Source: Gammaproteobacteria bacterium 45_16_T64
GTDB taxonomy: Bacteria > Pseudomonadota > Gammaproteobacteria > Pseudomonadales > Ketobacteraceae
Assembly (NCBI GenBank): GCA_002162955.1
Contig: MABD01000037.1
Coordinates: 222,031-286,030 of the forward strand
DNA length: 64,000 bases
Reading direction: 5' to 3'
Below the pieces are notes generated by a model that was not told the DNA's origin, searched no databases, and saw only the letters and a list, made by a program, of their open reading frames with translations. This document shows, one piece after another, positions 14,361 through 22,111 of this stretch. The translations under genes were made by a program, and so were the position numbers. Numbering within the stretch: position 1 is the first letter of the stretch; each line of letters begins with the position of its first letter.

Positions 14361-15713
14361 TTAGGGGTCGATTGGCAAGGTAAAAATCACTTCAAGCCCT
14401 TCTCCATTGCGGTTGTTCAGTGACAAGATACCACCCTCTTTTTGCGTTACCCCCTCGGCAATGGCTAACCCCATACCACTACCATCGGGTTTGGTGGTGA
14501 TAAATGGCTGCATCACACGGGATAGTAACAGCTCAGGAATGCCATCCCCATCATCCCGCACAAGCACCTGCAATTGATTCTCCTCAATCGACGTAATCAC
14601 CGAGACCTGCTCTTTGGCGGCGGTAACGGCATTTTCAATCACATTAAAAAGGCCCTGCCCCCATTCTTCCGGTAATAATGGAAAACAACAATCAGACTCC
14701 GACTCACTGATTTGTAGACGCAAGCGCACACCATTTAACAACGCTAAACGCTGCAGGTTATCCACTTCCTCTTTGATTATCTCTCTGTAACTACGCTGGT
14801 CTGACAATTCACCAGAAGGCTCCATATTCAAATCTTCTTTTAGCGTCAGTCGCAATTTGTTTTGTATCTCAAATAGCGAATGGACCTCCTTTCGCATCAT
14901 ATCAATATCCACCTCATCGCCAAGTGGGACCTGTTTATCCAGATGTTCCGTCAAATTGTGTACTGATATCCCCATCAACCCTAATTGATGACGGGTCTGA
15001 TGAATGATTCGCGCCGAATACTCACCCAACGACGCCAACTTTTCTTGAGTTTCCATTTGAGCCAATAAATCTTGCTCACGCACCCGCCACCGTTTTATCA
15101 ACGACGCCATAATAACCCACACCGCCGCGATGGTATTGATGACCAATACAAACTGAGTTATAGCCCAAGAAGGCGAAACCTCACCGTCTTGAAAAGGTAG
15201 AGTAAGAAAAAGAGGTGCGTAACGAATATGACCCGATTGTGTCGCCGCAACAGCGACAATGCTCGCTAAGATCCCAGTAACCAGCGCAAAAAAGACAACT
15301 TTTTGATCTAGTAATGGTAGCGCTAACGCCAACCCTGCGATCAATAGCAAACTATTATTGGACGTGTATGTTCCAGTAATCCACACAGAAGCCAACATAC
15401 CAAACGTATAACCTTGTGCTAGCGTATGTGACAGCAGCGGCCAGCTTCTCCGGTACCTACGCTGCCATAAACCAAGAAGAAAGCATACGCAATTGGCTCC
15501 TAGTGCAACCCAGCACATGGTCCGACAGAATTTCAGCATCGACAGGTCTAAGTAAAAATACAATTCGCTATTCTCGAAAAAATACAGCGAAAACAAAAAA
15601 ACAACCGGTACGTAGTTACTAACAAGTATGAGGAGTAACGTTCTATCTAATCCTCCCCAATCTAACGGATTACCTTTTCTGAGCAACTCTACAATGGATG
15701 GATTCGGCCCCAC
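14361..15713 (-). CDS. Membrane sensor histidine kinase.
   Basis: Multi-TM N-terminus, an H-box region, and HATPase G1/G2 boxes (DDGDGIPE..., TTKPDGSGMGLAIA). Confidence 0.7.
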   Translation of the reverse strand: MGPNPSIVELLRKGNPLDWGGLDRTLLLILVSNYVPVVFLFSLYFFENSELYFYLDLSMLKFCRTMCWVALGANCVCFLLGLWQRRYRRSWPLLSHTLAQGYTFGMLASVWITGTYTSNNSLLLIAGLALALPLLDQKVVFFALVTGILASIVAVAATQSGHIRYAPLFLTLPFQDGEVSPSWAITQFVLVINTIAAVWVIMASLIKRWRVREQDLLAQMETQEKLASLGEYSARIIHQTRHQLGLMGISVHNLTEHLDKQVPLGDEVDIDMMRKEVHSLFEIQNKLRLTLKEDLNMEPSGELSDQRSYREIIKEEVDNLQRLALLNGVRLRLQISESESDCCFPLLPEEWGQGLFNVIENAVTAAKEQVSVITSIEENQLQVLVRDDGDGIPELLLSRVMQPFITTKPDGSGMGLAIAEGVTQKEGGILSLNNRNGEGLEVIFTLPIDP

Positions 15714-15728
15714 TACAATCTCCCCCTT

Positions 15729-16376
15729 CTAGAGCACGTTATATTTGACAAGGGCAAGAGCCAATTTCGTTCGATCAGGCATATTCAATAATTGCAGAAT
15801 ACGCACAACATGATTCTTCGCAGTGCCTTCACTGATATTAAGAGTACGTCCAATACCTTTATTTGACTCTCCTTGGCCTATCAACGCCAGCACTTCTCGA
15901 TGCCTCGCGCTTAGACCACTAACACGCTTTACAAACTCCATTTCATCAGGCTCACGACGTAACGATTGAGCCAATCGAATCGCCAATGATGGATCTAATA
16001 CAGTTTGCCCAGATAATGCATCCATTACCGCTTTGATCAACTCATCAGGGCTCGCGTCTTTGCGAACATACCCCATGGCGCCCGATTCCATTGCTTGTTT
16101 GATTCGCCTTGCATCGTCATACGCCGATAAGATTAGCACGGGTTGCTTTGGCGCTAACCGCGGCAAAGCCTCTAGCCCAGTCTCATTAGGCAGCTCAACG
16201 TCAAGCAAAAGCAGGTCAATCGCCTGTTTCGCCAGCAGCAACTCAAGTTCAGCCACATCCCCAGCCTCATGAATAACCGACAATTTCTCATTTTTCTTGA
16301 GAATGCCCGCAATCCCTGCTCGAAACACAGGGTGATCATCACAGATTGCTATTTGGTATTGGCTCATAAGCGACAT
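15729..16376 (-). CDS. NarL/FixJ (LuxR-type) response regulator.
   Basis: REC domain (IAICDDHP...LLLLDVELP) plus a C-terminal LuxR HTH (EVLALIGQGESNKGIGRTLNISEGTAKNHV). 4..16 nt from the kinase gene. Confidence 0.8.
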   Translation of the reverse strand: MSLMSQYQIAICDDHPVFRAGIAGILKKNEKLSVIHEAGDVAELELLLAKQAIDLLLLDVELPNETGLEALPRLAPKQPVLILSAYDDARRIKQAMESGAMGYVRKDASPDELIKAVMDALSGQTVLDPSLAIRLAQSLRREPDEMEFVKRVSGLSARHREVLALIGQGESNKGIGRTLNISEGTAKNHVVRILQLLNMPDRTKLALALVKYNVL

Positions 16377-16846: not shown

Positions 16847-19675
16847 TTGCATTTACCCGCCATATTGATACATCACGTTATACTTGTGCTAGTTGGCCTA
16901 TTTTGGGGTCAAGCTGCACTTGCGGGTACAGTATTGACCAACAAAATCGATCATTACCCCTACTCTCTATCTCAAAACATCCAAATCTACGAAGATCACA
17001 CACAGTCGATGTCAGTTACCGACATTATTGAGCTCCCCGACAATCGATGGAAACACGGAGCAAAAGGCACCACCAGTTTTGGCTTCTCTGATAGCGCTTT
17101 TTGGGTAAAGGTGTCTCTTACCAACCAAGGCGCAAGCCTAAAACATTTGAAATTAGAACAGGCATACCCCCTCATGGATTCTGTTCAATTTTTCAGCCCA
17201 AAACCGAGCCGAAACGGGTCCAATGAGGGAATGTACAATAAACATCAGACAGGCGATGCGTTCCGGTTCGCCTCTCGTAATGTTAATCATCATAATTTTG
17301 TCTTTAATGTTGAGTTGCCTTCACTGACAAACCAAGTGTTCTATTTTCGTTTTCTAAGTAGAGACACCATCGAAATCAATCTGAAGCTCTGGGATGATAG
17401 TCATTTTGCAATAAGCGACCATAATAACCAACTGATCTACGGGCTGTTTTACGGTGCAATATTCGTACTTTTTATTTTCAATTTATCGATCTATTTTGCC
17501 CTAAAAGATATTAGTTACCTCTATTATGTCGGTACCATCATTGCCTTTACAGTAGTAGAAGCCAATTTAAACGGCCTTACCTTCGAGTACGTGTTTCCTG
17601 AATTCCCCGAATTTAATAAGCTATCTCGACCGTCGCTTATCTTGATATCGATGGGATTCAACTGCTTATTCACCACAGCGTATTTAGATCTAACAAAAAA
17701 CAATCCTTTGTGCGCCAAAATTTTACAGAAGCTCACCTATCTTTTCTTCGCCGCAAGTGTATTCATCATTCCACTGCCGTTCTATTTGAGCATATCAGTC
17801 GCAATGATATCTGCGTTACTTCTTATTATCATCATAATAACAGCGTCAATAATGGAAGTTCGCAAAGGTAACGTGTCCGCTATTTTTTACCTTTCGGCAT
17901 GGAGCGCACAATCACTAGGCGCCGGGGCTACTATATTAAGGGCATTCACATTCTTGCCCTCGAACAATCTCACCAACTTTGGGGTACAGTTAGGCACACT
18001 CACTTTCGCACTATTTCTTTCCATTGGATTGGGATACCGCATTAATAATGAAAGAAAGGAAAAAATTAAAGCACAGTCTCGCTCATTAATGAATGAGCGC
18101 TTAGCAAGAATCGAACAACAGAGATCAGCGAAAATAGCCCTAGAAGCTCAAAAGAAAGAATCCGAAGCAGAAGCAATCGCACTTGCTGCCACAGCAGAGA
18201 GCAAGGCAAAAAGTGATTTTCTTGCCACCATGAGCCATGAAATCCGAACCCCCATGAACGGGGTGCTTGGCCTATCAGAAATGCTGTTAGATTCCGAATT
18301 GAATAGCGAACAGCGACAACACCTAAAGGCAATACACAGCTCGGGACAATCTCTACTTACTATCCTCAATGATGTTCTAGACTTCTCTAAGATCGAAGCA
18401 GGACGCATGACCTTTGAAGAGATCACCTTCGATCTGGAACAACTGATTGATGAAGTCATTACCATTCTTTCACTTTCCGCGAATGATAAATCCATAATCC
18501 TCACAGCGATCATCCAGGAAAATGTTTCGAGACAAGTGGTTGGTGATCCTACACGCATCAGGCAACTATTGTTAAACCTCATCGGCAATGCTATTAAGTT
18601 CACCAACTATGGCGAAGTTAGTTTACGTATAAGCACATCAGAAAACACCAGTAATCCAATTCGATTTGAAGTGACTGATACCGGCATAGGCATTAGCGAA
18701 AGCCAAAAATCCAACCTTTTTCAAACGTTCTCCCAAGCGGACAAATCCACTACACGAAAGTATGGTGGCACAGGACTGGGGCTTGCAATATGCAAACAGC
18801 TCATCAATCTGATGGGAGGAGAAATAGGGCTAGAAAGCCAGCTAGGTCAAGGGTCTAGATTCTGGTTTACTTTACCCATAAAAATTCCAATAAAACAACA
18901 GCCGGATTACATTCCCGACAGAGAATTATTTCGACACAAGAAATTTTTGATTATCGATAACAACCTAAGATTTCAGGAGTTCGCCAATGAACAAATCGCC
19001 TATTGGGGCGGTGAGTGCACTTTTCTCGATCACACAGATAACAAAATAGTATCTGATGAATTTATGAAGGGTATTGATATCCTGCTTTGTAATGAAGAAT
19101 ACAAGAGCATCTTGCCTAATACAATCAAAGACAGAACATTGTATCTGGGAACGTCATTATCCTCACCCATGGATACAAACATACTCAGCAGGCCCGTCAG
19201 TATCGAATTACTAAAACGCTCGATGTTCGAAATCCTAAAATTGGATTGCCACTTACTGCATCAACCCACAAATGAAAGTTCACAATCTCACAATTTGCAT
19301 GTATTGGTCTCTGAAGATAATATTATTAATCAAACAGTTATCAAGGGAGTTCTCAAAAAATTCGGCGTCATCCCTATAATGAGTAACAATGGATTAGAAG
19401 CAATTTCCAGAATAGAAGAAAGCGAAAAGCAATTTGACCTGATTTTGATGGATTGTGAAATGCCGGAGATGGACGGATATAGTGCGACCCAAGAAATCAG
19501 AAAATTCGAAGATAAGAAAAACCCTCATCTTATTGTTGGATTAAGTGCGCATGCCGTCCAAGAAAGAAAGGACAAAGCCTTCGCATCAGGAATGGATCGA
19601 TATCTAACAAAACCGGTTAAATTTGAGGAAATACGACTATTACTACAAGCCATTTCATCAAGACCACCGTCTTAG
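16847..19675 (+). CDS. Hybrid sensor histidine kinase with 7TMR-DISM sensor module: periplasmic DISMED2 domain + 7 TM, HisKA, HATPase, C-terminal REC.
   Basis: Signal peptide. Seven hydrophobic segments after a roughly 180 aa periplasmic domain. H-box [11 protein letters not shown]-boxes [10 protein letters not shown]. Receiver domain [10 protein letters not shown]...[13 protein letters not shown]. Confidence 0.8.
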
Positions 19676-19703: not shown

Positions 19704-20795
19704 CTACAAGATACTACTCACAGTAAAACTCTCACTCAGTCCCGTAAATCGGTCCCTAGTAGTGACGCTTGTTCTTCCATCACCTAAATCAACGATCTGT
19801 ACCATAAAATCAGTCGACGTATACGTTCCAGGCATTAGCTTACCCGAGTTATCTACAATTTTCTCAGACACTGTATTAACAATTTCACTGATTACTGGGT
19901 TGTGTCGGTTAGTTTTCTTATATCTCACCGGCTTAGAATTTGGTGTCGCCGAACGGCTATAGGTTGGTTTTCTCGACTTATTCTGATATGACAACAAGGT
20001 TGGGTGATTCATATCACTTGCATCAGCAACCTGCCAGTGCTTCTCACCAATCCCCGTGACGATTAGACGAATGACCGCAGTCTCGATCGCATCCAGTACT
20101 GCAATCTGAGCAGGTTCATTGGTTGTATAACCAGCCTCGACCTCTAGCAACTCCTTGAATTTTACGAATTTGAAAACACCTGCTGTTGTTTCTTGAGAAA
20201 ATACTTTTTTGGTCGTGGTAACGGAATTCAGTACTAATCCAGAATTAATATCGATGGCTCTAAGGTTTACGGTAACCTGATCAACCCTATATTTTTCCGA
20301 CGACCCAACACCAATATACTTAGCACCTGCACCTCCCGTTTGAATATTACTATCATACCCAACAATGCCACCCTCCAACAATATACTAGCGGAACGTAGC
20401 TGCGGCAATGTACTCGTATTTTCACCATTTGCAGCCCTAATAATTTTTCGTTCGGTCAATAAATTCTGCAACCCTTCTCTTTCTAGCGGTTGAAACCAAC
20501 CAGATTCCCAAAGAGCCTTTACCAAAAGAGAGCTCGCCCCCTGGGTCACTGCAGTAGAAAAAGTACTTGATGGACTGGGCTTATATTGCCCTGTCTGATC
20601 TCTAAAACTGTACACCGAAACGGGAATCTTTCCACTTGGCAAGGGTAGAGAAATCAAATCCGCATGACTTTGGCTTTCCACGTTCCATTCACTACGTTCG
20701 TACCCTGGACCATTTAGTGTGTCTATTGGTGACGTCATCACCTGGCACCCTGTCAATAGTATGATTATCAGAAACGAATATCCGTGAATTTTCAT
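19704..20795 (-). CDS. csgG: Curli secretion channel lipoprotein CsgG, with an atypical C-terminal extension of about 90 aa. The ORF track extends the start to 20843; MKIHGY at 20795 has an AAGGG Shine-Dalgarno sequence.
   Basis: Lipobox LLTGC. CsgG core similarity (VSVYSFRDQTGQYKP..., LLEGGIVGYDSN). Confidence 0.85.
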   Translation of the reverse strand: MKIHGYSFLIIILLTGCQVMTSPIDTLNGPGYERSEWNVESQSHADLISLPLPSGKIPVSVYSFRDQTGQYKPSPSSTFSTAVTQGASSLLVKALWESGWFQPLEREGLQNLLTERKIIRAANGENTSTLPQLRSASILLEGGIVGYDSNIQTGGAGAKYIGVGSSEKYRVDQVTVNLRAIDINSGLVLNSVTTTKKVFSQETTAGVFKFVKFKELLEVEAGYTTNEPAQIAVLDAIETAVIRLIVTGIGEKHWQVADASDMNHPTLLSYQNKSRKPTYSRSATPNSKPVRYKKTNRHNPVISEIVNTVSEKIVDNSGKLMPGTYTSTDFMVQIVDLGDGRTSVTTRDRFTGLSESFTVSSIL

Positions 20796-20808
20796 GGTAA
20801 TACCCTTG

Positions 20809-21234
20809 TTAAATGGAGTTAACAATAAAAGTCGTGGTGCCACCGGTTGCTTTGTCCGTAGTAGTCACGCTAATCGTGCCATCACCTTGGTCAACAATAT
20901 CGACAATAAAATCTGAAGTTTCCAGCGAACCAGGAATAAGGTTACCTTCATCATCAACAATTGAACCCGACAACGTTGACGTGAGTCGACTCAACAATGA
21001 GCGCTGTAAACTGTCGTTAAAATCATCGATCCCTGATCCTGAGTCAAGATCCAATGACTCCGCATCAGGATCTTTAAAAGTATTCTGAGCCTGAGCATTA
21101 TTCAGCAGCATAGTTCCGTTCATTGGATTACCACCGAACGAAGGGTTAACCGGTACATATACCATTTCAGATCCGTGAGTAGTTGAAACTACCGATATGA
21201 ACAGAGTTAAACTAAAGAAATATTTTTTCATCAT
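20809..21234 (-). CDS. csgF: Curli assembly protein CsgF.
   Basis: Matches E. coli CsgF motifs: NPSFGGNPMNGTMLLNNAQAQNTFKDP vs [27 protein letters not shown], and the C-terminal SDFIVDIVDQGDGTISVTTTDKATGGTT. The ATGATG start at 21234/21231 has an AAGGTG Shine-Dalgarno sequence. Confidence 0.85.
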   Translation of the reverse strand: MMKKYFFSLTLFISVVSTTHGSEMVYVPVNPSFGGNPMNGTMLLNNAQAQNTFKDPDAESLDLDSGSGIDDFNDSLQRSLLSRLTSTLSGSIVDDEGNLIPGSLETSDFIVDIVDQGDGTISVTTTDKATGGTTTFIVNSI

Positions 21235-21241
21235 ATTCACC

Positions 21242-21640
21242 TTAAATTTCATCATCGGATAGATCAGGCGACCCACTTGCCAACATTTGTAATACCACTT
21301 GCTGCACCTGATAACGCACATTATTGGACGCTTCTGACGCGAGCTTGGAATAATCGGGCGATCGAGACATCGAGGTTTGAAATAAAACGCGATGATTGTA
21401 AGACACACTAATAACATGGCCGCCGCGCGCACTTCTACTTTCAGACATAACAAGAACATACTGGAGTTCATGACTATACTCTTCCCACGCCATTGAAAAT
21501 TCCTGATAAAATTCTTGGCCTTTGTGAGATAACGTTTTATCGACAATAATACTGTTCAACTCTGATGCTTTTGCACTAATGCAGACCACCATCAATACGA
21601 ATATGAACATTGCATTCTTAAGATTAATCATCGCAGTCAC
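21242..21640 (-). CDS. csgE: Curli secretion specificity factor CsgE.
   Basis: GQEFYQEFSMAWEE, ESRSARGGHVISVSYNHRVLFQT and a C-terminal PDLSDDEI, colinear with E. coli CsgE ([44 protein letters not shown]). Confidence 0.8.
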   Translation of the reverse strand: MTAMINLKNAMFIFVLMVVCISAKASELNSIIVDKTLSHKGQEFYQEFSMAWEEYSHELQYVLVMSESRSARGGHVISVSYNHRVLFQTSMSRSPDYSKLASEASNNVRYQVQQVVLQMLASGSPDLSDDEI

Positions 21641-21658: not shown

Positions 21659-22111
21659 TTAAAAATCTCGATACATCCTGGCCTGCATATTATTCCCATT
21701 CTGTATAATAGTACTCTGCAGATCATTGCCTCTTTGATCGACATAAACTCGATTATTCCTACCGCGTTGAAATACATTAACCGAGTTTTTTATTCCGGCC
21801 TGCAAAACAGTGGATTGGTTTTGGAATCCGACCTGCTTGGATTGACTGGTATTGCTCACACCATATTGGGTATTGATGGATCGATTTTGAATACCCAGCT
21901 GTCTAAGTTCAATATCTTGGTAGTGACCTTGTTGATTCACATTCGCAAGGTTACCTTTCGCAAAGGCAGACGCCGTATTTGCCAACTCATTAAACGACGA
22001 TATATCTCCGGCAATTGCACTGCTTAAAAATGACAACGAAGTAATCCATACAATAGGCAGTAAAAAAACCACAACCTTTAGATGCTTACTGAATGGCTTA
22101 GTAATCTTCAT
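21659..22111 (-). CDS. csgB: Curlin subunit, CsgB-like (nucleator-type) by size and a basic last repeat.
   Basis: 150 aa with a signal peptide, then about five imperfect Q-x-G-x-x-N-x-x-x-x-Q curlin repeats (VNQQGHYQD..., TQYGVSNTSQ..., FQNQSTVLQAGIKNS..., QRGNDLQSTIIQNG...). C-terminus is Arg-rich. Confidence 0.75.
   Translation of the reverse strand: MKITKPFSKHLKVVVFLLPIVWITSLSFLSSAIAGDISSFNELANTASAFAKGNLANVNQQGHYQDIELRQLGIQNRSINTQYGVSNTSQSKQVGFQNQSTVLQAGIKNSVNVFQRGRNNRVYVDQRGNDLQSTIIQNGNNMQARMYRDF

Follow-up and report, generated by a model that had tools for sequence, protein, structure and literature searches.

The closest described relative of the locus analyzed here is the CsgG-CsgF complex of the Escherichia coli type VIII secretion (curli) system, represented by structures of the complex (6L7A, 6SI7, and 6LQH) and by an NMR structure of CsgF (5M1U). 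On the CsgG side, the first six residues of CsgA dock in a crevice to which L236, W237, and D238 contribute and which is described as lying outside the periplasmic chamber of the channel (PMC6957492), and the eyelet of the channel is about 12 Å wide (PMC7304575). CsgF reaches the cell surface by passing through CsgG (PMC7304575), and its C-terminal part, which is located outside the cell, interacts with CsgB and not with CsgG (PMC6957492, PMC7304575). A fragment comprising mature residues 37-119 of E. coli CsgF pulls down CsgB, not CsgG or CsgA (PMC6957492), and the contact with CsgB has been attributed partly to the disordered last 11 residues of the protein (PMC10133297). The folded domain of CsgF remains poorly understood, being invisible in the cryo-EM structures of two published studies and known only to pull down CsgB.

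The locus in our window (the whole 64-kb stretch of DNA analyzed, from Gammaproteobacteria bacterium 45_16_T64) is a standard type VIII (curli) operon that differs only in domain architecture, in that the folded domain of CsgF is joined to CsgG. It encodes the same partners, CsgE, CsgF, and curlin, around the same CsgG core (47% identity to E. coli CsgG), and the local CsgF keeps the N-terminal barrel-binding motif as well as the folded C-domain. Whereas the CsgF folded domain of E. coli is found on CsgF only and is extracellular, the window carries a second copy covalently attached to the periplasmic C-terminus of CsgG. The original prediction called this arrangement topologically puzzling, and the published work concurs, placing the C-terminal part of CsgF outside the cell and the CsgG C-terminus beside the periplasmic CsgA-N6 crevice (PMC6957492, PMC7304575). 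Our literature searches found no description of a CsgG with a CsgF-like C-terminal extension, and a survey of curli diversity makes no mention of a CsgG-CsgF fusion (PMC3521004). The periplasmic adaptor or cap CsgE, which handles curli subunits at the CsgG entrance (PMC6957492), offers a functional analogy only: it is a separate, unrelated protein capping the chamber, whereas the tail is part of CsgG. Since csgE is still present in the window, the tail does not replace it.

The curli operon and its CsgG core

The four genes lie on the minus strand in the order curlin-csgE-csgF-csgG, an order shared by the related loci. The first is a single curlin gene (21659-22111; 150 aa; Curlin_rpt, E 1e-8), which is CsgB-like: its best matches are the first (CsgB-position) curlins of related operons, with 61% identity to the first curlin of the closest relative, L008, and the 64-kb window holds no second ORF with curlin repeats. 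Next come csgE (21242-21640; Pfam CsgE, E 4e-18) and a full-length csgF (20809-21234; 141 aa; Pfam CsgF, E 6e-31), whose product matches the E. coli CsgF chains of 6L7A and 5M1U over its full length (E 4e-20) and retains the CsgG-binding segment at its N-terminus as well as the C-terminal domain, which spans residues 80-141 (20812-20997). The csgF ORF as delimited mechanically (20809-21546, minus strand) begins 104 codons upstream of the true start (MMKKYFF, 21234) and shares part of its length with csgE, in a different frame; the match to CsgF is limited to the 141-aa product.

The combination of csgE, full-length csgF (132-145 aa), and a csgG with the tail recurs in seven related loci (L001, L003, L005, L006, L008, L010, and L011), most of the related loci having two curlin genes upstream; in more distant relatives, two curlin genes (163-190 aa and 222-266 aa) lie upstream of csgE. 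Because the related loci keep a full-length csgF, the fusion adds to CsgF and is not a replacement for it. One divergent csgG with the tail (P0056; L007:1266-2327) stands alone on a 4.8-kb contig, on which no csgB, csgA, csgE, or csgF lies between it and the upstream divergent gene. This CsgG has an insertion in the constriction-loop region (QQKPASQTSIEAGITTTPTTITQG), and its tail shares 79% identity with the tail of P0009.

On the other side of csgG in the window, a 942-aa hybrid histidine kinase (16847-19675, plus strand) converges on it, with 28 bp from stop to stop; the equivalent neighbors in L008 and L001 carry 7TMR-DISM Pfam domains. Just beyond are a histidine-kinase-like ORF (14361-15713, minus strand) and a LuxR/CsgD-like response regulator (15729-16376, minus strand), both judged from sequence only. 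These kinases and the LuxR/CsgD-like protein may regulate the curli operon of the window.

The csgG gene itself (19704-20795, minus strand; 363 codons plus stop) encodes a lipoprotein curli channel with a C-terminal extension, as judged from the ORF, the Pfam CsgG match, the alignment with E. coli CsgG, and an AlphaFold2 model of the core. The containing ORF (19704-20843, minus strand) yields 363 aa when read from MKIHGYSFLIIILLTGC, the signal peptide and lipobox (residues 1-17; 20745-20795, minus strand; read from the sequence), whose C17 is invariant in a 44-sequence alignment. The core that follows (residues 18-277; 19965-20744, minus strand) corresponds to mature E. coli CsgG in a residue-by-residue alignment. 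Pfam CsgG (PF03783) matches residues 50-256 (E 3e-77; 259 bits, cutoff 20.8), the NCBIfam equivalog for CsgG reaches 264 bits, under its strict 505-bit cutoff, and residues 11-277 align with the 277-aa E. coli protein (E 2e-73), the alignment stopping within two residues of the E. coli C-terminus. The modeled core superposes on E. coli CsgG (4UV2) with a target-normalized TM score of 0.87, E 5e-28, and 47% identity. W254 (codon 20034-20036, minus strand), which aligns with W237 of the E. coli CsgA-N6 recognition crevice (L236/W237/D238; PMC6957492), is invariant in the alignment. By these comparisons the core is a genuine CsgG. A database entry 100% identical to the window protein (P0001, "hypothetical protein A9Q99_16715") is 344 aa long and starts at Met20, dropping the lipoprotein signal peptide and lipobox (20739-20795 of the window, minus strand); because that start removes both elements, it is probably a start-codon mis-call.

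Homology, ancestry and selection of the tail

Since E. coli CsgG aligns through residue 277, the extension comprises residues 278-363. The original prediction, that this CsgG of about 363 aa extends beyond the 277 of its E. coli counterpart, is thus upheld, and the interval singled out there (19704-19990) runs from the stop codon through the tail domain and the linker into the final few core residues. The extension consists of a basic, disordered linker (residues 278-300; 19896-19964, minus strand), recognized by charge, pLDDT, and dN, and a CsgF-C-like folded domain of one helix and four beta strands (residues 301-363; 19707-19895, minus strand), recognized by BLASTP, hhalign, pLDDT, and dN. 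In the AlphaFold2 model, linker residues 279-299 have pLDDT below 50 and are disordered, and the domain is a confident fold (pLDDT from 83 up to 92-94). The 23-residue linker (TYSRSATPNSKPVRYKKTNRHNP) was predicted to be basic, as it is (residues 272-300 have a net charge of +9), but its long form is specific to the window genome and its closest relative, L008, and nearly absent elsewhere, most clade members having only about 4-10 residues past the E. coli-equivalent end.

The tail matches the neighboring CsgF without a gap, with 30 identities over 62 residues (48%; BLASTP E 5e-18), and the match begins at the helix (VISEIVNTVSEKIVD against LLSRLTSTLSGSIVD). The homology to the C-terminus of the adjacent CsgF that had been proposed is therefore real, but the proposal quoted about 17 residues too few on the upstream side, the helix among them. 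The resemblance lies in position and not in composition: ungapped, the alignment has a BLOSUM62 score of 152, against -38 +/- 17 for composition-preserving shuffles (n = 20,000; z = 11). A profile of ten tails, compared by hhalign with an alignment of 27 CsgF family sequences, matches its last 65 columns with 99.5% probability (E 2.5e-22), and tails and CsgF C-domains can be aligned gaplessly over 68 columns, of which 11 are invariant (G23, P27, G28, F35, G43, G45, T50, T51, D53, G57, and F62); the conservation of these residues could be purely structural. Across the clade, tails are 34-46% identical to CsgF and have lost the LQRSLLSRL helix motif that is conserved in CsgFs. Their net charge is -2.7, against -7.1 for the cognate CsgFs, so that the surface of the tail has diverged.

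Pfam CsgF (PF10614) does not reach its gathering cutoff of 25.8 bits on the tail, scoring 18.0 with the whole protein and 21.1 with the tail alone, over profile positions 46-131 of 132; it matches seven of the ten tails, in the correct register and every time under the gathering threshold, which would explain why precomputed Pfam annotation reports CsgG alone. The tail lacks the N-terminal CsgG-barrel-binding segment (NPxFGGNPxNG...AQAQN), which makes it a CsgF-domain paralogue, not a CsgF, and Pfam finds no SPOR domain (PF05036) on the window CsgG. Compared directly with E. coli CsgF, the tail profile gives E of about 1, in the correct register, and a phmmer search of PDB sequences with the tail returned chance matches only. 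The link to E. coli CsgF is transitive, running through the local CsgF in these alignments. This bears on the original suggestion of homology to the E. coli CsgF domain that contacts CsgB, which holds by this indirect route but not by direct comparison, and then for the folded "middle" domain of E. coli CsgF, not for the 11-residue disordered C-terminus (PMC10133297). Taken on its alignments and profiles, the tail is paralogous to the folded domain of CsgF.

Could the second copy be a product of assembly? At the DNA level, the csgG tail and csgF are only 57% identical, match at 25 of 62 third codon positions, and have no exact run in common longer than 9 nt, and so no DNA repeat is involved. 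Nine further proteins (P0002-P0009 and P0056; 45-82% identity) have this tail, always in frame and always ending in ...SS(V/I/M)L. In all, the fused CsgG is represented by at least 10 distinct proteins from several independent assemblies (Ketobacteraceae and other Pseudomonadales MAGs), and it occurs in three GTDB genomes, two Ketobacteraceae MAGs and one Pseudomonadales MAG. An assembly duplication, the artifact against which the original prediction had cautioned, is ruled out, and its question about other CsgG homologues is answered by these proteins and genomes.

The fusion occurs only in a small marine clade. When 1.84 billion cluster representatives were searched exhaustively with a profile, 54 proteins with the tail domain were recovered, among which only the cluster of the window protein and one 126-aa fragment are linked to CsgG; most of the others have the length of a CsgF or are shorter fragments, and a few long, repetitive proteins with weak scores resemble chance matches. 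A scan of JGI metagenomes gave 19 loci, all of them ordinary CsgF genes and none a fused CsgG. A word-indexed protein search with the tail alone gave no match, and the relatives were found with the full-length query and by the exhaustive profile search.

In a neighbor-joining tree of the CsgG core only, the ten proteins with the tail group as a single clade. The domain tree likewise unites the tails in one clade, sister to a group of the cognate CsgFs and two other CsgFs, and the branching within the tail clade is the same as that of the CsgG cores. Together, the two trees point to one duplication-fusion event in the shared ancestor, inherited vertically since then. Between the window and L008, a comparison in which dS is saturated, dN is 0.083 for the core, 0.115 for the CsgF-like domain, and 0.51 for the linker; read from these substitutions, the tail domain is under purifying selection and constrained like the channel core, while the linker drifts. 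The tails evolve faster than the C-domains of their cognate CsgFs (mean identity 52% vs. 75%). We hold it near-certain that the fusion exists, that it has this ancestry, and that it is under selection.

The CsgG C-terminus as a site for added modules

The natural C-terminus of CsgG lies 25 residues past W254, and it is there that the extension begins, with the tail domain about 25-45 residues from the W237-equivalent tryptophan. Given that the linker of most clade members is far too short to pass the pore, the tail domain probably stays in the periplasm, as inspection of linker lengths and of related CsgGs suggests. We infer that nine copies of the tail would be arrayed around the outside of the CsgG ring, beside the substrate-docking crevices.

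The related CsgGs in question are those with other C-terminal additions. Among the 120 closest CsgGs, 24 (P0013, P0017-P0025, P0027-P0029, P0032, P0034, P0036, P0040, P0069, P0072, P0082, P0087, P0107, P0111, and P0116) have C-terminal extensions of 180-270 aa with a basic or proline-rich linker, many of them with a SPOR-like domain, the matches to PF05036 often being near or under threshold. SPOR domains bind peptidoglycan in the periplasm. The presence of SPOR-like domains at the same position in sister CsgGs supports a periplasmic tail. These proteins, from related marine gammaproteobacteria, carry their module at the same natural C-terminus and through a basic or proline-rich linker, but the module is SPOR-like, whereas that of the window CsgG is a CsgF paralogue, and at least three core-tree clades other than the CsgF-tail clade contain them. 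Our literature searches found no paper on CsgG-SPOR fusions. The comparison shows that the CsgG C-terminus is a site for added periplasmic modules, both CsgF-like and SPOR-like.

Candidate roles of the tail

These observations are best explained by a genuine and inherited domain fusion. In the ancestor of a small marine Pseudomonadales clade (Ketobacteraceae and relatives), a second copy of the 3' half of csgF, encoding the helix-plus-beta-sheet domain, became joined to the neighboring csgG at its 3' end, the original csgF being kept. The tail, attached at the natural CsgG C-terminus after the crevice tryptophan, would act as a tethered periplasmic module that binds CsgB-type curlin and enriches or orients this amyloid-prone subunit at the mouth of the channel, mirroring in the periplasm the CsgF head on the surface. 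We favor such a docking role, at somewhat short of an even chance, because the homologous part of E. coli CsgF binds CsgB, and the only curlin of the window operon is CsgB-like. Several points weigh against it. The tails have diverged from CsgF in identity, helix motif, and charge, such that the ligand specificity may have changed; the last 11 residues of E. coli CsgF are absent from both the tail and the local CsgF; L007 keeps its tail with no csgB, csgA, csgE, or csgF immediately upstream on its 4.8-kb contig; and a nucleator-binding site in the periplasm risks premature amyloid formation. A bolder version, in which matched docking paralogues on either side of the outer membrane would catch the nucleator at the periplasmic rim and, once it is threaded, pass it to the surface CsgF head, strikes us as unlikely; the literature searched contains no description of such a two-sided relay for any secretion channel.

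Alternatively, the partner of the tail may be another component of the machinery. The tail could bind the CsgF C-domain homotypically, or CsgE, in the periplasm, and thereby recruit CsgF before its export or set a 9:9 stoichiometry. The paralogous domains are encoded side by side and kept together in the related loci as in the window, and CsgF must cross CsgG (PMC7304575), at whose periplasmic entrance region the tail is located; the literature examined does not, however, report self-association of the CsgF folded domain, the E. coli CsgF C-domain does not bind CsgG, and the surface charge of the tail has diverged from that of CsgF. We consider this recruitment role improbable. Doubtful, too, is the idea that the tail has lost any curlin-related binding and serves as a generic periplasmic anchor or stabilizer that, like the SPOR-like tails, positions or braces the nonamer. 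In favor of such an anchor, added modules are frequent at the CsgG C-terminus (24 of the 120 closest homologues), the tails change faster than the cognate CsgF domains, and L007 has kept its tail on a short contig where csgG has no further csg gene upstream; yet the CsgF fold has no known peptidoglycan-binding or oligomerization function, and the residues invariant between tails and CsgFs have been retained, even if perhaps for structural reasons.

It is also conceivable that the tail reaches the cell surface by threading through the channel or around it, adding to or replacing the CsgF head as nucleator anchor, given that the homologous CsgF domain works outside the cell and that the linker of the window genome and L008 is longer (23 residues) and disordered. 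Threading is unlikely, as the shorter linkers of most members have too few residues to cross the periplasmic chamber and the barrel, and a threaded tail would plug the narrow eyelet (PMC7304575); a complete CsgF with its barrel-binding N-terminus is also retained, and we attach very little probability to a surface-exposed anchor of this kind. Finally, an artifact or non-functional relic, be it an assembly duplication, a frameshifted read-through, or a decaying csgF remnant, might be suspected in a metagenome-type assembly whose tail falls below the Pfam CsgF threshold, but it is scarcely credible, being refuted by the divergence of the two DNA copies, the in-frame recurrence of the architecture across independent assemblies, and the strong constraint that holds for the domain and is lacking in the linker.

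The fusion would not overturn the current model of curli secretion. As a second copy of the CsgF domain, maintained under selection and probably on the other side of the membrane, it amounts to a natural experiment and implies a periplasmic client or partner. Covalently tethered and present at 9:9 stoichiometry, the domain may also be easier to see by cryo-EM. More broadly, added C-terminal modules are relevant to curli in marine biofilms and to the engineering of CsgG nanopores, and the fusion provides a handle on the role of the least understood part of CsgF.
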